A stretch of DNA of 64,000 bases from Flavobacterium sp. (GCF_027533505.1 NZ_JAPZUB010000056.1:77-64076), one strand, 5' to 3'; numbered from the stretch's first letter, positions 12,172-64,000 are shown. Program-made: numbers and translations. The notes: generated by a model from the sequence alone, not told the origin.

Positions 12172-12975
12172 ATGGAAAGTATACTTGATAAAACATATAA
12201 ACGCTTAGTCATTCAGGTTTCTCTGAACGGCTTGTCGTTTGCCGTCATCAATACGATTACTGAACAAATTGAGGTTTTGCAACCGCTACCCTACCCTCCT
12301 TATCAACGTAATACTCCTATCGAAGATTGGTTCACCGTAGTTTTTCACGATCATCCCGAATTGCGTCTGCGGTATGATACCATACAAATTGTTCATACCA
12401 ATGCACTCAACACTTTTGTGCCAACCCCTTTTATTGATGCAGAGTTTAAAGGAAGTTACTTGCAATTCAATACCCGGGTTTTTGAAACCGACTTTTTTGC
12501 CTTTGATACCTTGGCATCCCACGAAATGACCAATGTGTATATCCCGTATGTGAACATGAATAACTTTTTCATCGATCAATACGGTTCGTTTGATTACTGC
12601 CATGCACATTCCATTTTGGTTCAAAAATTATTGGAATACAGTAAGCATTCGGTCGAACCTGTAATGTATGTGCATCGCGCTCCTTCCCATTTTGAAATTG
12701 TAGTAATTGCGCAACGGAAGTTGTTTTTTTTCAATGCGTTTGACTATCAAACCCCTGAGGATTTTATTTATTACATATTATTTACTGCCGAGCAGTTGCA
12801 ACTTAATCCAGAGCAATTTCAATTGGAGTTGTTGGGTACATTTGAGGAAGACGATGCCTATTACCAAATGGCCTATACCTATATTCGACAGGTACAGCTC
12901 ATGCCGTTGCGCGCTATCAATAATGGGCGAAGTGAACAGGAAAACCGTCACCATTTTATTCTTGTTCACGCATGA
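12172..12975 (+). CDS. DUF3822 family protein
   Basis: Bacteroidota protein upstream of rsmD, with LFFFNAFDYQTPEDFIYYILF. Confidence 0.8.
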   Translation: MESILDKTYKRLVIQVSLNGLSFAVINTITEQIEVLQPLPYPPYQRNTPIEDWFTVVFHDHPELRLRYDTIQIVHTNALNTFVPTPFIDAEFKGSYLQFNTRVFETDFFAFDTLASHEMTNVYIPYVNMNNFFIDQYGSFDYCHAHSILVQKLLEYSKHSVEPVMYVHRAPSHFEIVVIAQRKLFFFNAFDYQTPEDFIYYILFTAEQLQLNPEQFQLELLGTFEEDDAYYQMAYTYIRQVQLMPLRAINNGRSEQENRHHFILVHA

Positions 12976-13529
12976 GAATTATTTCCGGAAAATACAAAGG
13001 GCGTCGATTGGTAGCTCCTAAAAACTTACCCGTTCGCCCCACCACGGATATGAGTAAAGAATCCTTGTTTAATATCTTGAATAACCATTTTCATTTTGCA
13101 AACTTGAAGGTGTTGGATTTATTTGCCGGAACGGGAAATATCAGTTATGAATTTGGATCCCGCGGTTGTGAAGATCTAACTTGTGTGGATGCCAACTACA
13201 GTTGCATTCAATACATTAAGAAAACAGCACAGGAACTGAACCTCAATATTACTCCGATAAAAAGTGATGTTTTTTCCTTTTTGGAACGTCATCGAGGAAA
13301 TTATGATGTGATTTTTGCTGACCCACCGTACGATATGGCAGAAAAAGATTTTCATCGATTGGTGGGGTTAATCTTTACACAAGATTTGTTGGATGAACAA
13401 GGGGTTTTGGTGGTTGAACATTCGAAGCACACCCCAATAAAAGATTTGGAAAATTTTGCCTACTATAAAAACTATGGTGCTTCGGTTTTTTCCTTTTTTG
13501 AATATCCTGAAATTGAAGACGAAGCATAA
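12972..13529 (+). CDS. rsmD: 16S rRNA m2G966 methyltransferase RsmD family
   Basis: Motifs MRIISGKYKGRRL, RPTTD, LDLFAGTG and DPPY. Confidence 0.92.
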   Translation: MRIISGKYKGRRLVAPKNLPVRPTTDMSKESLFNILNNHFHFANLKVLDLFAGTGNISYEFGSRGCEDLTCVDANYSCIQYIKKTAQELNLNITPIKSDVFSFLERHRGNYDVIFADPPYDMAEKDFHRLVGLIFTQDLLDEQGVLVVEHSKHTPIKDLENFAYYKNYGASVFSFFEYPEIEDEA

Positions 13530-13532
13530 AAA

Positions 13533-13844
13533 AGCAGACCTGTAAGCCGGATTCTGTATTCCAAATACTCGGAACCCTTATCATTTATCTAGCCGCGTTA
13601 TTACTAACGCGATCCATCTGCCTACCCCCCGGCAACGGACGAGTAACCCTTAACTGCCGGTATACATGGCATTGCACCGCATAGAGTTTACCTGATTTCA
13701 CTACAGCCGAACTGTACATCCTTTCTGTTGCACTGGTCCTTCTCGTTCAAAAAACGAGCGACGGGTGTTACCCGCTATGCTACTCTTTGGTGTCCGGACT
13801 TTCCTCTCTCCCAACGAATCGGGACAGCGATAAGGCGGTCTGCT
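13533..13844 (-). ncRNA. rnpB: RNase P RNA, bacterial type A
   Basis: The minus strand contains GAGGAAAGTCCGG, AGTGCAACAGAAAG and ACAGAATCCGGCTTA. The P1 ends are complementary (AGCAGACC / GGTCTGCT). Confidence 0.97.
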
Positions 13845-13848
13845 GGCG

Positions 13849-55703: not shown

Positions 55704-55759
55704 TTGATATTGGCATACTGCTTCTATTTAACTCTTTACTTTTTGTCTTGACAGAGGTG

Positions 55760-56110
55760 AGTCGTTGGACGTATGAGTGACTAGTGATTAGTGACTAGTC
55801 GTTAGACGTTAGACGTTAGACGTTAGTTAAGGAGGACATGTTAGCACGCCCATTTCTAATTTATAATTCAACATTTAAAATACCTCCAAAAAGGGGTCTT
55901 TGTTCTTTCTTCTTTGTTCTTTCTTCTCAACTTAAAAGTCGTTAGAATTTAGAGTAATTAGTGATTAGTGACTAGTGATTAGTCGTTAGACGTTAGACAT
56001 TAGACGTTAGTCAAGAAGGACGTGTTAGAAAACCCATTTATAATTTAAAATTCAACATTTAAAATACTTCCAAAGAGGGTCTTTGTTCTTGCTTCTTTGC
56101 TCTTTTTTCT
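55760..56110. repeat. Two tandem roughly 170-bp direct repeats, each a mosaic of four heptamer arrays
   Basis: Copies at 55760-55927 and 55937-56110. Each has the order (TAGTGAY)n, (GTTAGAC)n, spacer, (ATTTAAA-like)x4, spacer, (CTTTSTT)x4. Confidence 0.92.
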
Positions 56111-56148
56111 AAAACAAACGATTCAGCCTTTGAATGACTCACAATATC

Positions 56149-56176: not shown

Positions 56177-56229
56177 AATAAACGGTTTAGTGGTTCAGCT
56201 TCTCGATGATTTTTTACTTCATTTTTTTG

Positions 56230-56256: not shown

Positions 56257-58005
56257 ATGACTTTAATTATTCGAAAAATTGAACACAAAGGAGCGGTACG
56301 CATTGGCATTTTTTTTGAAAGGAATAATGCGATACAGCAACAATTAAAAGGGATTGGAGCTACCTATAGCAAGACGTTTCAATGTTGGTATATTGATTAC
56401 AACAAAGCAGCGTATCAACAGCTAAAAATTTTATTTCCCGATTTACAAATACAGCAACCGGTGGCCGGCGAAACGAGTAGCCGTGACCTTCCACCCATAG
56501 CCCAAAGCGAACTTCAGTTAGGTTTACCTCCTTTGGTAAACAACCCTGAACCTATAACGAACAAGGCTTCGTTAGCCCATAAGTTGCGATTAGAATTATT
56601 ACCACCCTTGGGGAAATATTGGGTTTTTAAAATTCGGTATGTGCAATCGGTTGTGAATCAACTTAAGTTGGTAAAAGGCGTATATTGGCATTCGACGTAC
56701 AAAGTATATATGGCCAATCGGCATCCGAAAGTGAAAGAAGCGGTGGAACGTATTTTGGAAGTTTCCAATTTTTTTCCTGAAAACTATTTGGAAAAAGAGG
56801 TTGTTTTTGAAGGCAAGTCGATTGTTTTGCGTCCACACCTTGAGAATGTGAAATGGATGCAGGTGTATGTTCCTGCACAATTGGTGTTATTGGAAAAAAT
56901 AAAACGCATTTCGATGGTTCGGTACAGTAAACCGAATGCTTGTTTTTTATTGCCTGCAACCCCAGCTGTTGTTAATGCATTAGTGGTACATTTTGAACCG
57001 CATCGTGTTGTGATTCAATCGGAATTGCCTCAGGGATATGTAAACCGACGAAATGTTGTTAATAAAAAGCAACTTGATTTGGCGCGAACAAAATCACATT
57101 TGTTTTCCAAACTTCCTGAGCCGGCACATTATTTTGTTTCCAATTACATGGATACGTTAATGGCGGTGAATTATAGTGTTTCAACCATTCGTACTTATAC
57201 ACAACAATTTTTACAATTTTTACGCGATTTTGAGTACAGAGACCCCAAGGATATCACGTATAAAGAAACGGTTCGTTATTTAGCCTCCTTGATGGAACGC
57301 GGATTGAGTGCAACCTCTGGTCATGCGATGGTGAATGCATTGCTGTTTTATTATAATCAGGTGGAACAAATACCGGGTTATGAATTAAAACTACCTCGGC
57401 CTAAAAAGGAAAAAAAGTTGCCTACTGTTTTGACAAAGGAAGAATGTTTATTGCTTTTTGGGGTGGTTGAAAATCCGAAGCATAAGTTATTGTTATTAAT
57501 TGGTTATGGAGCGGGTTTACGCGTGAGTGAAATTGTGAATTTAGAGTGGCGTGATATTCTGTTTGCGGAACACAAGATTCACATCAGGAATGCGAAAGGA
57601 AAGAAAGATAGAATGGTGATGTTGCCTATGCGTATAGTTCGTTCATTGGAATACTATAAAGAGACGTATCAAACCAAAAAGTACGTATTTGAGGGGCAAT
57701 TTGCAGGTGAGCCCTATTCTGTGCGAAGTGTTCAGGAGGTTATGCGAATGGCATTAAAGAAGACTGGTTTGGAGAAAAAGGCCACGGTACATTCGTTACG
57801 ACATAGTTTTGCTACACATTTGCTGGAGCATGGAACGGATATTCGATATATTCAGCAGATATTGGGTCATTCGAGTATCAAGACCACAACGATTTACACG
57901 CATATTAGTGCAAGTGCTATGAATAAAATCATCAGTCCATTGGATCAGATTACCGAACAAGAATATGAGAAAAAAAGTGAATACGAATTGAAACCTAAGA
58001 AATAG
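56257..58005 (+). CDS. Tyrosine recombinase (integron-integrase-like / Xer-like) with a long N-terminal extension
   Basis: SAM-like segment NYSVSTIRTY and catalytic set GLRVSE, AKGKKDR, HSLRHS, LGH and TTTIYTH. The ORF opens at 56206; 582 aa from ATG 56257. Confidence 0.92.
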   Translation: MTLIIRKIEHKGAVRIGIFFERNNAIQQQLKGIGATYSKTFQCWYIDYNKAAYQQLKILFPDLQIQQPVAGETSSRDLPPIAQSELQLGLPPLVNNPEPITNKASLAHKLRLELLPPLGKYWVFKIRYVQSVVNQLKLVKGVYWHSTYKVYMANRHPKVKEAVERILEVSNFFPENYLEKEVVFEGKSIVLRPHLENVKWMQVYVPAQLVLLEKIKRISMVRYSKPNACFLLPATPAVVNALVVHFEPHRVVIQSELPQGYVNRRNVVNKKQLDLARTKSHLFSKLPEPAHYFVSNYMDTLMAVNYSVSTIRTYTQQFLQFLRDFEYRDPKDITYKETVRYLASLMERGLSATSGHAMVNALLFYYNQVEQIPGYELKLPRPKKEKKLPTVLTKEECLLLFGVVENPKHKLLLLIGYGAGLRVSEIVNLEWRDILFAEHKIHIRNAKGKKDRMVMLPMRIVRSLEYYKETYQTKKYVFEGQFAGEPYSVRSVQEVMRMALKKTGLEKKATVHSLRHSFATHLLEHGTDIRYIQQILGHSSIKTTTIYTHISASAMNKIISPLDQITEQEYEKKSEYELKPKK

Positions 58006-58018
58006 TTACATAAATTTG
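57988..58018 (+). promoter_or_regulatory. Consensus promoter TTG-N20-TAAATTTG overlapping the integrase 3' end (Pc-like)
   Basis: TTG at 57988-57990 and TAAATTTG at 58011-58018 match Bacteroidota -33/-7 spacing. Confidence 0.6.
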
Positions 58019-58042
58019 AATATATTTACTAGTTACAAGCAA
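58003..58042 (+). other. Candidate attI-like recombination site
   Basis: TAGTTACA is repeated at 58003 and 58030; G|TTACAAGCAA begins at 58032. The site function is inference. Confidence 0.4.
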
Positions 58043-58200
58043 CCCTAAAAGACCGACAGTGCGACCATCAAACGACAGAAAAAAAAGCCACCGCACATTT
58101 TAGCACATTTGGTCTTGCCCGACACACAAGCCAACCCTTCGCAAAACCAAAAGAGCTAAAATTTTCCTACCGCACGGACTGACATTCCGAAAATAAGTAT

Positions 58201-58225
58201 TAAATTTGACCAGTTTTGTCAAAAC
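58201..58225 (+). promoter_or_regulatory. -7 box overlapped by an inverted-repeat operator upstream of the Xre gene
   Basis: TAAATTTG at 58201-58208, TTTGAC-N7-GTCAAA at 58205-58223, and GTTTTG-T-CAAAAC at 58213-58225. Confidence 0.55.
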
Positions 58226-58237
58226 ACATATTGTCTT

Positions 58238-58531
58238 ATGAGTAACTTTGGTGACCTAATACGAATAGCAAGAGAAGAGAAAGGTTTGTTCCTGCGACAA
58301 GTTGCAGCTGAACTGGACATTGACCAAGCTATCATTAGCAAATTTGAACGCAACGAACGCAAGCCGACAAAGGAACAGGTTCTGAAATTTGCTAAGTTCT
58401 ATAAGCTCGACAAGGAAACTTTATTAGTTGAGTGGTTAAGCGACAAAGTAGCTTACGACCTGCAAGACGAGAATTTGGCTGACAAAGTTTTGAAAGCTGC
58501 TGAACAGAAAATTAAATACAAGAAAAAGTAA
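58238..58531 (+). CDS. Xre-family HTH regulator (controller-like)
   Basis: REEKGLFLRQVAAELDIDQAIISKFERNERKP HTH_3 pattern; TAATG-coupled to res. Confidence 0.9.
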   Translation: MSNFGDLIRIAREEKGLFLRQVAAELDIDQAIISKFERNERKPTKEQVLKFAKFYKLDKETLLVEWLSDKVAYDLQDENLADKVLKAAEQKIKYKKK

Positions 58532-61422
58532 TGCTTCATTATATCATACAAGAAAAGAAAAACAAATGGTTGCAGTCTGACGACTGCACCATTAGTGATT
58601 TGATAAAGTATATCCGTGACAAAGGACAGTTACGTGATACGCAAATTGAAGCAATTGAGACTTATTTGTTTTTGAAAATACAAGGACAGAATAAACCACT
58701 TTGGCAATTATTTTCAGAAGGCTTTTTCACTAACGGCACAGACTTATCAAAACTTAATATTAATCAAACGGCAAGAGATTTTTTAACCGCCAACAAAGAC
58801 GCTTTTGCATTGTATGACTTTGCAAGAACAAAAAACGGAAACGGTTCTTTACTCCCCGAACTCGAAAAACTAATTGTTGACAAACCAACTGAATTAGATT
58901 ACGACACTATTATAAAAAGCATTTTCTACAATGTAAGCTATGCCGACTACTTAATGAGTTTGCCGATGGGTGCAGGTAAAACATTTCTAATGGCTGCTTT
59001 CATTTATTTGGACTTGTATTTTGCCGACAACGAACCAGAGAATAAAGCATTTGCACATAATTTTTTGGTGCTTATTCCTTCGGGCTTAAAATCTTCTATC
59101 GTTCCGAGTTTAAAGACAATTGAAAATTACGACCCTTCTTGGGTGTTGCCCGAACCATCGGCAAGCAAACTAAAAAAACTATTGAAGTTTGATGTTTTGG
59201 ACGAGCAGAAATCAGCGAAGAAAAGTAACAAGGCAAGAAACCCCAATGCTCAAAAAGTAAATGCTTGCTTACCTAATCCATTCGGACAAGTGTTTGTTGT
59301 AAATGCAGAGAAAGTGATTTTGGAAAGTTTCAAATTCAATGCTCAAACAGAATTGGAACTGGAGGAAGAAGAAAAAGATACAAGCAACGATTTAAAAAGA
59401 TTGTTCGGACAAATTCCGAACTTGACAATCCTTATAGATGAAGTTCACCACGCTGCAACCGATGATATTAAATTACGGCAAGCCGTAAATTATTGGCACA
59501 GCAAAGGGAACATCACAACCGTTTTAGGTTTCTCGGGAACGCCATATTTGCAGGGTGCTGAAACTATCAAAGCAGGTGATTACGCTTTTAAGTTTTCTCA
59601 AATAACCAACACGGTATATTATTATCCATTGGTTACAGCAATTAAGAAATTTCTGAAAACACCAACAGTAAAAATCGGACAAAACCTTGACCGTTTTCAA
59701 ATCATTAAAAAAGGAATTGAGGACTTTGATACACTATACAAGAAAACTGTTTATGAAAATGGTGCTATTGCTAAAATAGCTATCTATTGCAGTAACATTG
59801 AGGTTTTAGAAGAAGAAGTTTATCCGTTCCTGACAAGTGAATTGAAAATAAATCCTGCCGAGATTTTAAAATTTCATGGAGGAAATAAAAAATACACTTT
59901 GCCAAAAGAGAATGAATTAGAATTCCGTTCATTGGATTTGGCTATTTCAAAAAAGCGTTACATTCTTTTAGTTCAAGTGGGAAAAGAAGGTTGGGACTGT
60001 CCAAGTTTAACAGGTGTAATCCTTTCGCAAAAAGGCGACAGCCCACAAAATATGGTGCTGCAAACATCTTGCAGATGTTTACGCCAAGTGGACAAAGGAA
60101 AAGAAGAAACTGCTTTGATTTGGTTGAATAAAGATAATGCCGATACATTGAACAAACAGTTAAAGCAAGAACAAAACAGCAGCATTGACGAACTGAACAG
60201 CACCAAACGAATTGGGAAAGCCGAAATGGTTGAACGCCACAGCCGTATGGAATACTTGCAGTTGCCGAAAGTGGAATTTTATCAAATGAAAGTTACTTAT
60301 CAAAGCATTGATGAGGAAGAAACAGCAAACACAAAAGCCAAGTTAAAAGCTATCATTAAAAAGATGGAAGATTACAAGGCTTCTGCCTTAATCAGCACCA
60401 GTGAAATTTCAAACATTGATACTGGAACTATTGACATTATTAACGAAACAGGAATTGCATTTGCCAATTACAACCAATGGCTTTTTGAAATGAGCCGCCA
60501 AAGTTTTGGGTTGATTTCGGAAACACAATTGCATCAATACGATACAGAATTAAACGAAATATTTGAAACCGTTTCTTTTGAAAAAGACGGAAACCGCTTT
60601 TTCAATGAACTGTATGATTTGCATTTGATACAATCAAAAATTCGTGTTGCGTTTAGCATCAAAAGAGATTTACAAACCGACACAGAAGTAATTCCAAAAC
60701 AAGCGGAATTATTGATTGCCGAACGCTTGACCAATGTAGAGAAAAATCCAAAACTCTATCCGAACGAAGCTGATACAAACAAAATTCTTGAATTAGATAA
60801 AAGCAATGCCGATGTTGAATTTGACTGGGCAGAAGTTGAAAAGGCTTATCTGGTAATGAAGGAGACAATGATAAGTCAAGGAATGGAAAAGTGGGTTCCT
60901 GAATATGAAACTTTCAAATCCGATAAAGATTATTCTCTACCAACAAAATCTAAAAATAATTCCTTTCATTATTTACCCTACAATTTTGGAGCTAGCGGAA
61001 GCAGTGGTTTTGAAATACAAGCACTTCAAGAAACCTTAAGATTAGCTGATTTCAAAACTAAAGAGTTGGAAATATACTACAATGGCGAACGTGGCTTAAC
61101 CGAATTTGTCATTAACTGCTTTGCCAAAGAAGGAAAGTATTGGAAAAACATTGGGAAATACACTACTGACTTTTTAATTGTGAAACGAACCGCTAAAGAT
61201 AAAATTCATAAAGCCCTACTTATTGAAACCAAAGGTGCTTTGTATGCAGAAGACAAGGTTTTTCAGAAAAAGAAAAACTATGTAGAAACAGAGTTTTTAA
61301 AACTCAACCAAGATAAATTCGGCTATCAACGTTTCGACTTCCTGTATTTGGAAGACAGCAAAAACATTGCAGCCAACATCACAGAATTGAACAATAAGTT
61401 AAACCAGTTCTTCAATGATTAA
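58531..61422 (+). CDS. Type III restriction (Res)-like SF2 helicase-nuclease
   Basis: Motifs SLPMGAGKT, DEVHH, FSGTP, VGKEGWDCP and QTSCRCLR; C-terminal PD-(D/E)xK-like TTDFLIV...LIETKG. Confidence 0.82.
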   Translation: MLHYIIQEKKNKWLQSDDCTISDLIKYIRDKGQLRDTQIEAIETYLFLKIQGQNKPLWQLFSEGFFTNGTDLSKLNINQTARDFLTANKDAFALYDFARTKNGNGSLLPELEKLIVDKPTELDYDTIIKSIFYNVSYADYLMSLPMGAGKTFLMAAFIYLDLYFADNEPENKAFAHNFLVLIPSGLKSSIVPSLKTIENYDPSWVLPEPSASKLKKLLKFDVLDEQKSAKKSNKARNPNAQKVNACLPNPFGQVFVVNAEKVILESFKFNAQTELELEEEEKDTSNDLKRLFGQIPNLTILIDEVHHAATDDIKLRQAVNYWHSKGNITTVLGFSGTPYLQGAETIKAGDYAFKFSQITNTVYYYPLVTAIKKFLKTPTVKIGQNLDRFQIIKKGIEDFDTLYKKTVYENGAIAKIAIYCSNIEVLEEEVYPFLTSELKINPAEILKFHGGNKKYTLPKENELEFRSLDLAISKKRYILLVQVGKEGWDCPSLTGVILSQKGDSPQNMVLQTSCRCLRQVDKGKEETALIWLNKDNADTLNKQLKQEQNSSIDELNSTKRIGKAEMVERHSRMEYLQLPKVEFYQMKVTYQSIDEEETANTKAKLKAIIKKMEDYKASALISTSEISNIDTGTIDIINETGIAFANYNQWLFEMSRQSFGLISETQLHQYDTELNEIFETVSFEKDGNRFFNELYDLHLIQSKIRVAFSIKRDLQTDTEVIPKQAELLIAERLTNVEKNPKLYPNEADTNKILELDKSNADVEFDWAEVEKAYLVMKETMISQGMEKWVPEYETFKSDKDYSLPTKSKNNSFHYLPYNFGASGSSGFEIQALQETLRLADFKTKELEIYYNGERGLTEFVINCFAKEGKYWKNIGKYTTDFLIVKRTAKDKIHKALLIETKGALYAEDKVFQKKKNYVETEFLKLNQDKFGYQRFDFLYLEDSKNIAANITELNNKLNQFFND

Positions 61423-61447
61423 TGGTTAATTGTAAATTGTTAATGAA
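61419..61447. repeat. Left heptamer array (TTAATTG-like x4) of the four-helix element
   Basis: TTAATGG TTAATTG TAAATTG TTAATGA fills the gap from the res stop to ATG 61448. Confidence 0.8.
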
Positions 61448-61807
61448 ATGACAGAGAATATTATAAAAAATAAAAGTTTTGCATTTGCAATTAGAGTTGT
61501 AAAACTATATCAGTTTTTATGTGAAACAAAAAAGGAGTTTGTTCTTTCAAAGCAATTGTTGAGAAGCGGAACTGCTGTTGGTGCATTAGTTCGAGAAGCT
61601 GAACACGCTGAAAGCAAAGCAGATTTTAAACACAAAATGTCAATTGCTCAAAAAGAAATAAATGAAAGTATCTATTGGCTCGAATTGCTAAAAGAAACGG
61701 ACTATTTAACCAATGAACAATTTCAAAGCATCAATGCAGATGCAGTAGAAATAATCAAACTACTTACATCAATAATCAAATCGACCAAAGCAAACATTAA
61801 CAACTAA
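61448..61807 (+). CDS. Four helix bundle protein (23S rRNA-IVS-protein / bAvd-like family)
   Basis: 119 aa with KSFAFAIRVVKLY, LSKQLLRSGTAVGALVREA, AESKADFKHK.SIA.KE..ES.YWLELL. Confidence 0.92.
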   Translation: MTENIIKNKSFAFAIRVVKLYQFLCETKKEFVLSKQLLRSGTAVGALVREAEHAESKADFKHKMSIAQKEINESIYWLELLKETDYLTNEQFQSINADAVEIIKLLTSIIKSTKANINN

Positions 61808-61828
61808 CAATTGATAATTAACAATTAG
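61794..61828. repeat. Right heptamer array (CAATTAA-like x5), inverted relative to the left array
   Basis: ACATTAA CAACTAA CAATTGA TAATTAA CAATTAG, ending 5 nt before the mod ATG. Confidence 0.8.
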
Positions 61829-61833
61829 AAAAA

Positions 61834-63702
61834 ATGCCAATAAAATACATTCCATATTACCCTAACACGGTTGAAGGACAAGCAGTTTTGAATAATATAA
61901 CACGCAATCAAAGAGTATTGCGATACCGTGAAAATGATAAGGTTTTTGACCGCATAAAAAGAGGTATGCCCTTTTATGAAGTAGAACCTATTGAAACAGT
62001 AGGAGCACCTTCTAAAAATTTGGTTATACGTGGCGAATGTATATCGGCTTGTGCATATTTGAAGGAACAAGGAATTAAGGTTGATTTGGTTTGCATTGAC
62101 CCACCATTTGCAAGTGGTATTGATTATTCAAAAAAAGTTTTTATCCGTAGAAATCCAAATATTGCCAAAAAAATTGAAGAGGCTGAACAACAAATGGATA
62201 TTGAGGAATTAAGAGCATTTGAAGAAAAAATGTATGGAGACATTTGGTCAAAAGAAGATTATCTCAATTGGATGTATGAAAATCTTTTAGCTATTAAATC
62301 AGTTATGGATGAAAAGGCCAGTATTTATGTTCACCTAGATTGGCATATTGGCCATTATGTAAAAATACTTATGGATGAAGTCTTTGGAGAGGACTTGTTT
62401 AGAAATGAGATTATATGGTATTATGCTGATTATATACAAGGTAATGCCACCACAGGTTTTGCTAAAAAGCACGATGTGATATATTTCTATACAAAATCGG
62501 ACAATTATACCTTTCAAAGGGTAACCGAAAAACTTGACAAGCCAGTTGAAAGAAATAAAGTAGTATGGGACAAAGAAACCCAGACACTAAAAGTTGCGAG
62601 AGATGAAAATGGTAAAATAATCTATGAAACATTTACAGAAAAATTCCTTGATAGTGTTTGGGCAATTGGTCAAACTTCAGTGACAAGAAAAACTAGTAGT
62701 GAAAATGTCGGTTATTCAACACAAAAGCCCAAAGCACTGTTAGAAAGGTTCATTAAGGCAAGTAGTAATGAAGGAATGATAATCGCTGATTTCTTTGGCG
62801 GTAGTGGAGTAACAGCAAAAGTAGCAAACGACTTAGGCAGAAAATTTATTCATTGTGATATTGGAATAAACAGTATTCAGACAGTTAGAGATAGATTAGT
62901 TGAAGCCAAAGCCAACTTTCAAATATTGGAAATAAAAGACGGTGTTAGCTTATTCCGCAACCCACAGCAAACAATGGATAAGTTGGCAACACTTATTCCA
63001 GGATTACAAAAAGGAGTAAAAGGAATTAGCAATTTTTGGTTTGGTGCAATCACAAAAAGTAAAGAAGGCATTGTGCCGGTTTACGTTCCCAATTTGCTTA
63101 ATACACAAGAAAAGGTTTTGGACATTCCCACCATAAACACCATAATCAATCAGGAACTATCAAACTTAGAAGTCAATGCCAAAAAAGTAATTGTGTATTA
63201 CATAGACATTGACGACCAAAAGGCATTGGAGAAATTTATAAAAGACAACAACGCCACAGAAATAGAGGTTGAATTAAAAGACCTTAAAAATCTATTGCAC
63301 GATGTAGTAATTGAGGACATTATAGATTTTAAAACTACTAAAACAAAAGACGGTTACGAAACAGAAATAAACAAATTCATTAGCGACCGTCTAATTCAGA
63401 AAATCGGTGAATTTAACCAAAAAGGAAATTTACAATCTGTTGCCAAAGGCAAGAAATTCAATCCCATCAACATCAGTGAAGAAGGATTAGAACTCATTGA
63501 GCTTATTGCCCTTGACTGCGAAAACACAGAAGGACAATGGCACAGCACCACAGAAATTAAAATTGACAAACTCGGTTATGTAATTACCAACGGAGTAAAA
63601 TCAAAAAACTTTTGGAACGGCAAAATTACCAGCGACAAAAATCCATTGAGAATAAAAGTGAGAAACATAAGCGGAGACGAAACAATAAAAACAGTAGAAT
63701 AA
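61834..63702 (+). CDS. Type III Mod-like N6A/N4C DNA methyltransferase
   Basis: Catalytic DPPF, YVHLDWHIGHY, YSTQKP..LLERFI and SAM-binding DFFGGSGVT. Confidence 0.9.
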   Translation: MPIKYIPYYPNTVEGQAVLNNITRNQRVLRYRENDKVFDRIKRGMPFYEVEPIETVGAPSKNLVIRGECISACAYLKEQGIKVDLVCIDPPFASGIDYSKKVFIRRNPNIAKKIEEAEQQMDIEELRAFEEKMYGDIWSKEDYLNWMYENLLAIKSVMDEKASIYVHLDWHIGHYVKILMDEVFGEDLFRNEIIWYYADYIQGNATTGFAKKHDVIYFYTKSDNYTFQRVTEKLDKPVERNKVVWDKETQTLKVARDENGKIIYETFTEKFLDSVWAIGQTSVTRKTSSENVGYSTQKPKALLERFIKASSNEGMIIADFFGGSGVTAKVANDLGRKFIHCDIGINSIQTVRDRLVEAKANFQILEIKDGVSLFRNPQQTMDKLATLIPGLQKGVKGISNFWFGAITKSKEGIVPVYVPNLLNTQEKVLDIPTINTIINQELSNLEVNAKKVIVYYIDIDDQKALEKFIKDNNATEIEVELKDLKNLLHDVVIEDIIDFKTTKTKDGYETEINKFISDRLIQKIGEFNQKGNLQSVAKGKKFNPINISEEGLELIELIALDCENTEGQWHSTTEIKIDKLGYVITNGVKSKNFWNGKITSDKNPLRIKVRNISGDETIKTVE

Positions 63703-63980
63703 TGCCAGTATATTTAGTAGTTACAGACGACACATTTTCATTAGATAAAATTAAGCACAAATTCCCTGCTGACTTTGTGGAAGTTTTTAACAATACATTT
63801 CTTTTAAGTTATTAGCTTTCAGACTGGCAACTTAATGACGAAATTGCTGAATTAATTTATGAAGAATATCCAAATTTTGAAATTGTAATTACAGAAGTTA
63901 ATAAAGCAGATTTGTTTCATTTTAAGGAAGCGGACAAGTATGTAAAATATCTTTTTGACAGAGAACAAACTAAAAACTAA
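63702..63980 (+). pseudogene. 92-codon ORF interrupted by an in-frame TAG at 63813-63815
   Basis: ATG 63702 is coupled to the mod stop. The same frame stays open after the TAG (LSDWQLNDEIAELIYEEYP...EQTKN) until TAA at 63978-63980. Confidence 0.6.
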
Positions 63981-64000
63981 AATGCCAACCCTTCGCAGTC

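Follow-up and report, generated by a model that had tools for sequence, protein, structure and literature searches.

A probable integron-like gene-cassette platform behind a tyrosine recombinase without the IntI-specific insertion in Flavobacterium

Integrons are the textbook example of how genes can be stockpiled and reshuffled, and to our knowledge all known integrons are defined by one recombinase family, IntI, together with its special insertion, which is exactly what the detection tools seek. In this study, a 64-kb stretch of DNA from Flavobacterium sp. (the window, to which coordinates refer, on the plus strand unless stated otherwise) was analysed, in which a tyrosine recombinase gene is followed on the same strand by a restriction-modification system. 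Positions 56257-64000 are quite probably the proximal end of a real integron-like gene-cassette platform, which is not an IntI integron. By sequence comparison, the platform is present in many Flavobacterium and other Bacteroidota genomes.

Sedentary chromosomal integrons, such as the Vibrio cholerae superintegron with its ~120-nt Vibrio cholerae repeat (VCR) attC sites, share several features with this platform: a recombinase gene that adjoins an insertion site ending in GTT; arrays of short, co-oriented cassettes, mostly with a single open reading frame (ORF); an imperfect palindrome at the cassette 3' end, whose core is AAC...GTT and whose R''/R' pairing is specific to the cassette; sites that are very similar within one array; and a cargo rich in toxin-antitoxin and defence genes. 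Unlike in those integrons, the Flavobacterium recombinase is without the IntI-specific insertion and has an N-terminal module of 255 aa with three predicted repeats, the recombinase gene and the cassettes lie on one strand, and the attI-like site directly follows the stop codon or, in some loci, overlaps it. The sites also differ in having a paired R box of 9-10 bp, in which only GTT+R is conserved rather than GTTRRRY, and an asymmetric loop next to GTT, and the hosts are Flavobacteriales and Bacteroidales-type lineages. An integrase co-oriented with its cassettes, with attI immediately downstream of the gene, is shared with the Treponema denticola-type and the archaeal integrons. The IntI of T. 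denticola, like the archaeal ones, keeps the IntI-specific additional domain. For the archaeal integrons, both the co-oriented integrase with attI right after the gene and the retention of this domain are reported in PMC9668308. The recombinase family of the platform differs from both in that it has no such domain. The I2 helix is treated in PMC7790495 as the innovation that enables single-strand recombination by integron integrases.

A Xer-like catalytic core is shared with the Xer-dependent modules, such as integrative mobile elements exploiting Xer (IMEX; e.g. the CTX phage) and the pdif modules of Acinetobacter plasmids. In the CTX phage, a Xer-type enzyme is able to use a folded single-stranded hairpin, and the pdif modules are separate blocks of genes delimited by recombinase sites; both rely on the host XerC/D and on 28-bp dif-like sites. 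In contrast, the platform has a dedicated recombinase with an N-terminal module, a fixed insertion site adjacent to its gene, and palindromes of 110-150 nt with unit-specific end pairing. No description of such a platform in Flavobacterium or other Bacteroidota was found in the portion of the full-text literature that was searched, and other papers may exist.

Junction, cassette arrays and palindromic sites

Eighty orthologous loci were obtained from species-representative (GTDB) genomes, and 71 loci were aligned without gaps when anchored on GTT. Every locus has, directly after the recombinase gene, the same conserved block of 32 nt, which ends in GTT and has a per-position conservation of 0.8-1.0 across the 71 loci. 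It holds an imperfect inverted repeat and two AGTT boxes placed 27 nt apart (58004-58007 and 58031-58034), and in all orthologous loci the conservation is lost after ...ACTAGTT. The same boundary is found within the species: in contigs whose upstream DNA is 98-99% identical to the window, homology is lost at 58034/58035, where three contigs continue with AAATGCAAT, GTATGAAAC, and AGGTGCAAGCG, and a fourth stops two bases past GTT. In a lake metagenome (run X1), two variants of equal depth (195x and 171x) diverge at 58035. The junction is exact, and the first unit behind it is replaced from strain to strain. A first-pass annotation of the window had predicted conservation up to about 58032 followed by variable cargo from GTT, and this is what both the 71 loci and the near-identical strains display. 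The arrangement expected of IntI-type systems, an attI adjoining the integrase gene with its junction at G|TT, was found as well, with the crossover position narrowed down to the GTT trinucleotide.

The same annotation had pointed to a repeat of TAGTTACA (58003-58010 and 58030-58037) and to GTTACAAGCAA from 58032. On direct reading of the sequence these are present, as are the other motifs it listed, and both TAGTTACA copies coincide with the conserved AGTT boxes in the 71 loci; the number of copies in the window (6 versus 1.7 expected, with 2 of 100 shuffles reaching 6) is weak by itself. Copies of the attI 13-mer were also considered as inner sites, and that scan was uninformative since the inner sites are a different, structured sequence. 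In L004, L007, L008, L030, and L056, the recombinase frame crosses the whole attI-like block and its stop codon is the TAG of ACTAGTT, so that gene and insertion site overlap.

About 40 of the 80 orthologous contigs end at most 1.1 kb after the recombinase gene although their upstream flanks are complete, which is a signature of repeats. An rRNA operon or other known RNA was rejected as the cause, as Rfam found none downstream. When the downstream regions were compared all against all, repeats of ~125 nt emerged, which occur every 0.3-3 kb on the recombinase strand and are preceded by N7'-AAC and followed by GTT-N7. A unit opens with GTT+N7 and closes with the reverse complement of this, N7'+AAC, after which comes an imperfect palindrome of 109-149 nt ending in ...AAC; up to 14 such sites are found per 10 kb of the orthologous loci. 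The AAC-palindrome-GTT sites between genes that had been anticipated from the window thus recur in the arrays of other genomes.

Units were closed by a chain-walk following the rule GTT+N7 ... N7'+AAC, and the 131 closed units have a median length of 690 nt (interquartile range 508-980, maximum 8.5 kb). Closure of the first unit by a reverse-complement 10-mer of its own was found in 47 of 52 loci; foreign 10-mers gave 16%, and DNA upstream 7 of 44. A site's 5' box (R'') agrees with the start of its own unit at 5.64 of the 6 variable positions, and with that of the next unit at 2.58 of 6. This match to the unit's own start follows the logic of integron attC sites, in which the 5' end of an excised cassette serves to restore its R' box.

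The dominant ORF lies on the recombinase strand in 99 of the 131 units and on the opposite strand in 10, while 22 units have none. Its ATG comes 45 nt after GTT and its stop codon 17 nt before AAC, and it occupies ~90% of the unit. The arrays are made mostly of short, co-oriented single-gene cassettes. A Pfam search on 109 unit ORFs gave 85 different families, and their functions include ParE, HepT, Fic, GmrSD, OLD-type ATPases, a TIR effector, methylases, secreted proteins, and glyoxalase; toxins of toxin-antitoxin pairs are among them. Units also move. A 99%-identical unit occupies different array positions in two species (L010 and L048), where the homology is bounded by AAC|GTT on both sides and the palindrome moves at the 3' end of the unit, and one array contains two 96%-identical copies of a unit.

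Two further loci are of note in their own right. In L081, whose recombinase is identical to that of the window, a DDE_Tnp_1_6 transposase gene (12512-13843) stands right after the first attC-like site. L002 is a contig labelled as a Variovorax paradoxus bin, yet it has an 88%-identical Flavobacterium-type recombinase and an array, and is probably mis-binned.

To describe the sites, 69 reconstituted sites from different sequence families were aligned. Their common fold consists of an R box of 9 bp with invariant AAC/GTT, then helices of 3, 4, and 5 bp with internal loops between them, and ~5 extra unpaired nucleotides (xRAAC) beside GTT as a conserved asymmetry. Compensatory changes are seen in 18 of the 21 consensus pairs. 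Paired cells amount to 94.5%, as compared with 62% in shuffled alignments (none of 500 shuffles reaches the observed value) and 29-44% in slid ones, and the covariation score is 0.776 versus 0.178. The three inner helices were not used in the selection of the sites and are therefore independent evidence. An imperfect palindrome, an AAC...GTT core, and the conservation of structure over sequence, all of which characterise attC sites, are found here in four helices; the spacing and the asymmetric loop differ from those of classical attC.

The sites, with the variable R-box pairs left out, were made into a covariance model, which was searched against 1.18 Mb (E<=0.01). Of its 225 matches, 220 are on the recombinase strand and downstream of the gene. 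The upstream matches are four weak or partial ones on the plus strand and one strong one on the minus strand (L017 8858-8995, 89 bits), which is the only strong match outside the downstream arrays. The model has no match in the 64-kb window, and Rfam, even at E<=1, contains no family that fits the repeats. Flavo-1 (RF01705), an RNA with function unknown, was found 130-700 nt upstream of the recombinase gene in L011 9718-9796, L013 9618-9701, L016 9295-9354, and L018 9782-9868 (minus strand), and ~2.1 kb upstream of it in L022 7752-7886. It was rejected as a part of the system, being upstream in five of nine Rfam-scanned loci and not upstream of the window's gene.

A proposed mechanism can be described as follows. 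The recombinase gene stands immediately upstream of the insertion site and on the same strand, and mobile units enter behind the gene at the GTT 58032-58034. Repeated insertion gives rise to an array, from which a unit would be freed as a circle when two neighbouring sites recombine. In the window genome, the first unit is a 6.1-kb cassette of an XRE regulator and a type III restriction-modification system. We infer that this reaction is catalysed by the neighbouring recombinase, with a cut inside GTT, and, by analogy with integron attC sites, that the palindrome acts in the form of a folded single strand.

The recombinase and competing explanations

The recombinase has an N-terminal three-repeat module, a SAM-like core-binding domain, and a catalytic domain, in this order; the longest ORF begins at 56206. 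Its catalytic residues R422, K447, H512, R515, H538, and Y547 are invariant in an alignment of 17 sequences, and the motifs were located in the window protein. The family is tight (555-608 aa), with at least 819 clusters of the collection matching at E<=1e-20, and its members are named in their sources only as "tyrosine-type recombinase/integrase" or XerD. The N-terminal module is predicted by AlphaFold to be formed by three beta-beta-alpha-beta-beta-alpha repeats, with a predicted local distance difference test (pLDDT) value of 79. It belongs to no Pfam family, and a PDB fold search with it gave no significant match, only a weak resemblance to the XPB damage-recognition and SMARCAL1 HARP domains. 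It matches 229 clusters (50% identity clustering, E<=1e-3), many of which are proteins of 555-608 aa.

In the C-terminal half, the best NCBIfam matches are XerA_Arch and the integron-integrase model, and the structure of the catalytic half is equally close to VchIntIA and XerA. These likenesses, together with sites that have an AAC...GTT core and R''/R' logic, could suggest a canonical integron with a merely divergent IntI, which existing integron models would cover. However, both matches are under the curated cut-offs, and that to TIGR02249 (integron integrase) reaches 203 bits as compared with a cut-off of 265 and is split in two stretches. Furthermore, when aligned to VchIntIA (2a3v), the recombinase matches no more than IntI residues 11-177 and 247-319. 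The skipped residues 178-246 are the IntI-specific insertion (the I2 helix region near patch III) that defines the family, and here the query has 28 residues versus 70 in IntI. By the score and by the alignment, the additional domain on which IntI membership depends is absent, and the 255-aa N-terminal module is lacking in IntI. In addition, within Bacteroidetes proper, only Salinibacter ruber has a complete integron according to the IntegronFinder 2.0 paper. A canonical integron is thus very unlikely. Nor does the protein belong to the Xer/dif systems, with their enzyme of ~300 aa and dif-like site of 28 bp (11-6-11): it has 582 aa and an extra module, its sites are palindromes of 110-150 nt, and it scores 168 and 163 bits on the XerC and XerD models versus cut-offs of 335 and 330. 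In sequence it resembles members of the XerA/IntI neighbourhood, without the IntI-specific insertion. Taken with the GTT junction and the co-oriented units, this supports the earlier suggestion of a non-IntI cassette-capture system.

It may also be asked whether the cassette array requires a folded single strand. The enzyme is Xer-like and has no I2 helix, AAC|GTT is a palindrome as duplex, and the attI-like block has its imperfect inverted repeat, all of which would fit duplex or cruciform DNA with ordinary two-strand exchange as in Xer-type enzymes. Against this, strong covariation extends over 110-150 nt in the three inner helices, as would be expected if recognition depended on pairing within a single strand (or on a cruciform), but not of two ordinary duplex binding sites. 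The conserved asymmetry, with its unpaired nucleotides on one side, likewise disfavours this alternative, and we regard it as unlikely. An ordinary integrative island or integration hot spot, in which one large element was moved and the restriction-modification genes are its cargo, could be read from the window alone, where a single 6.1-kb block follows the gene and the upstream context is not conserved between species. It is highly improbable in view of the orthologous loci, where sites stand between single genes at the density given above, every unit has its own closing repeat, and single units move independently between arrays. An island, prophage, or integrative and conjugative element would be one element with direct att repeats, often at a tRNA; in this case the unit bounds are inverted, unit-specific boxes, no flanking direct att repeats were found in the window, and, as the first-pass annotation had stated, no tRNA target is present in the 64 kb. 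The palindromes could finally be terminators or intergenic repeats, like the repetitive extragenic palindromic (REP) sequences or miniature inverted-repeat transposable elements (MITE), which accumulated independently while the recombinase is an unrelated neighbour. They are indeed structured intergenic repeats, and some repeat families are common to several genomes. Nevertheless, nearly all covariance-model matches are downstream of the gene on its strand, the rest of the 64-kb window has none, no Rfam family fits the sites, and independent insertion does not explain the pairing of a site's 5' box with a unit start 0.3-8 kb upstream. There is hardly any likelihood left for this explanation.

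The restriction-modification cassette and promoter-like elements

Features of the window are listed in Table 1. The restriction-modification cargo on the recombinase strand, which had been described in the first pass, is confirmed by Pfam and, for the XRE helix-turn-helix (HTH) and methyltransferase genes, also by PADLOC; the restriction subunit-like protein has no PADLOC match. Adjacent Mod and Res genes, as in type III restriction-modification, are thus found by their Pfam and PADLOC families, with the ResIII match being the weaker one. The gene set agrees with type III systems that have a controller-like HTH, with an XRE HTH, a ResIII protein, and an N6_N4/MTase_III methylase on one strand. 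Unlike the usual type III systems, the whole is packed as a mobile cassette with an A/C-rich leader and trailer, and it is interrupted by a gene of the 23S_rRNA_IVP family. Located between res and mod, this gene is enclosed by inverted repeats of 32 nt (61414-61445 and 61795-61826), and looks like a separately mobile insert within the cassette. Metagenome contigs break inside this region, at 61473-61480 and at 61644.

Table 1. Features of the window from the recombinase gene to the end of the stretch.
Feature	Position	Strand	Evidence
Tyrosine recombinase gene, 582 aa	56257..58005	+	Pfam Phage_integrase, Phage_int_SAM_4
N-terminal module, residues 1-255	56257..57021	+	AlphaFold models
Promoter-like element: TTG 57988-57990, 20 nt, Bacteroidota-type -7 box TAAATTTG 58011-58018	57988..58018	+	Sequence; -7 box conservation
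attI-like site: conserved block (consensus AAAAAGTTGTATATATTTGATGATATTTACTA) plus GTT	58000..58034	+	Same register, 71 loci
GTT junction, platform end / cassette start	58032..58034	+	Homology with same-species contigs stops 58034/58035
Cassette 1, start GTTACAAGC, closing GCTTGTAAC	58032..64000, on to ~64131	+	L086; 6.1 kb
A/C-rich leader with motif GCCAACCCTTCGCAAAACCAAAAGAG (58130-58156) and -7 box TAAATTTG (58201-58208)	58035..58237	+	Sequence
XRE-family HTH regulator, 97 aa	58238..58531	+	Pfam HTH_3; PADLOC HTH_VI and capH-like
Type III restriction subunit-like protein, 963 aa	58531..61422	+	Pfam ResIII E=2e-7
23S rRNA intervening-sequence family protein, 119 aa	61448..61807	+	Pfam 23S_rRNA_IVP
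Type III DNA methyltransferase, 622 aa	61834..63702	+	Pfam N6_N4_Mtase E=1.4e-41; PADLOC MTase_III E=7.5e-44
Small ORF, 37 aa, with TATTTAGTAGTT look-alike	63702..63815	+	Gene call in L086; translation
A/C-rich trailer start, second copy of GCCAACCCTTCGCA	63984..64000	+	Homologous to L071, L084 trailers

The distal boundary of the cassette had been placed beyond the window, and it could be read in the contig L086, which is identical to 58006-64000, runs 157 nt further, and reads ...GGGCAGCTTGTAAC, the reverse complement of the start GTTACAAGC. The closing GCTTGTAAC is 131 nt past the window end, and the unit ends at ~64131. The closing box CAGCTTGTAAC plus the next 20 nt (ACGGGTAACTGTTGCACAAC) is common to the window cassette (L086 6127-6152) and an unrelated unit of ~590 nt (L087 1-193, minus strand), which was the sole match in a scan with the terminal 26-mer. 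Two other candidates for a boundary were rejected. The ATATTTAGTAGTT look-alike (63709-63724; TAGTTACA-like) is not a second boundary, as the reverse-complement box lies later and the site model was silent there with filters off; inside cassette 1 with all filters off, the model gave no attC-like site above noise. The 14-mer GCCAACCCTTCGCA (58130, 63984) does not represent direct repeats of the att type either, since it is a leader and trailer motif common to related cassettes and the true closing box is GCTTGTAAC.

Related cassettes occur elsewhere. L071 has a related five-gene cassette of 8.5 kb with homologous leader and trailer, which is closed and then followed by a canonical site, and in the sister strain L084 a closed unit of 6.3 kb holds a different type III restriction-modification system. 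In L054, the leader after the attI-like block is 95% identical to that of the window, whereas the recombinase is just 55% identical; leader variants are also present in metagenomes. In a metatranscriptome contig (run X25), the start of the window cassette is joined at 58032 to the 3' end of another unit's attC-like palindrome. Together with the L054 leader and the closed L071 cassette, this junction links the window cassette to mobile relatives. The motif GCCAACNCTTCGCAAAANNAAAAGAG (58130-58156, 63984-64000) recurs in the leader and trailer of both the window cassette and the related L084 cassette, is found in many sequence contexts in metagenomes, and is the deepest-covered part in a metatranscriptome (depth 44). 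One metagenome variant joins 58035 straight to 58130.

A TTG-N20-TAAATTTG promoter at the 3' end of the recombinase gene had been proposed in the first pass, and this element is indeed there with its 20-nt spacing. A -7 box TAnnTTTG stands exactly at -21 from the G of GTT in 54 of the 71 loci. The box would drive cassette transcription, with a start at ~58024-58026 that reads into the cassette; the conservation of the attI-like block may instead reflect binding of the recombinase. A second -7 box, missed before, is better placed, 30 nt before the XRE start codon, and the window cassette probably has its own promoter there. The leader, which had been put at ~200 bp, measures 203 nt up to the ATG at 58238. 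At least one TAnnTTTG is present anywhere inside 62 of the 131 closed units. The 26 nt from the recombinase stop codon to GTT all belong to the conserved block, and this spacing predicts little room for a terminator. Since there is so little room, and since the recombinase frame ends at the TAG of ACTAGTT in five loci, read-through from the recombinase gene into the array is also possible.

Upstream of the platform, the 980-nt gap between a TatD-like gene and the recombinase start is occupied by tandem repeats and microsatellites, including a 184-nt tandem repeat in two copies at 55736-56113 and the heptamers TTAGACG and TAGTGAT, and this arrangement varies among near-identical strains. A bacterial RNase P RNA of class A (13527-13846, minus strand, 194 bits) is ordinary and confirms the chromosomal context.

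Weight of the evidence and significance

Several points weigh against an integron-like platform that acts on folded single strands. The recombinase has no I2 helix, and therefore a single-strand mechanism is not a given; no circular or empty-site junctions were seen. The covariation of the R box is partly built in by the closure criterion with which the sites were collected, and many of the loci are metagenome bins. The metatranscriptome contigs, including that of run X25, are from other communities and may contain DNA. In the window itself there is a single unit, which is nine times the median size and has its probable own promoter. Of the right-hand site after the window's R'', beyond the window, only 26 nt are known, which differ from the common 5' arm. 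The 20 nt shared with L087 are followed there by a terminator-like hairpin instead of a recognisable 3' arm; this may be an array end or a degenerate site. As to the mobility of the platform itself, the upstream genes of the window are missing from the 80 GTDB loci of other species, which also rules out a conserved chromosomal neighbourhood.

With these points taken into account, the integron-like platform is retained as the probable reading of 56257-64000. It is somewhat less certain, although still favoured, that it represents a second integron-type family in Flavobacteriales and Bacteroidales-type lineages, in which folded palindromic sites are recognised without the I2 helix, maybe through a structure-sensing N-terminal module. 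Such a family would have had an independent origin or split off before the I2 helix arose, and would stock defence, toxin-antitoxin, and surface-protein genes in a phylum from which integrons were thought to be nearly absent.

If this is true, there would be a large uncharted pool of mobile cassettes in Bacteroidota of freshwater, wastewater, and sediment, including complete restriction-modification and other defence systems, and the frequent assembly breaks right after the recombinase gene would be explained. The platform would provide a new structure-specific recombination system for Bacteroidota genetics, as well as a natural experiment on how single-strand or structure-specific recombination may evolve without the I2 helix.

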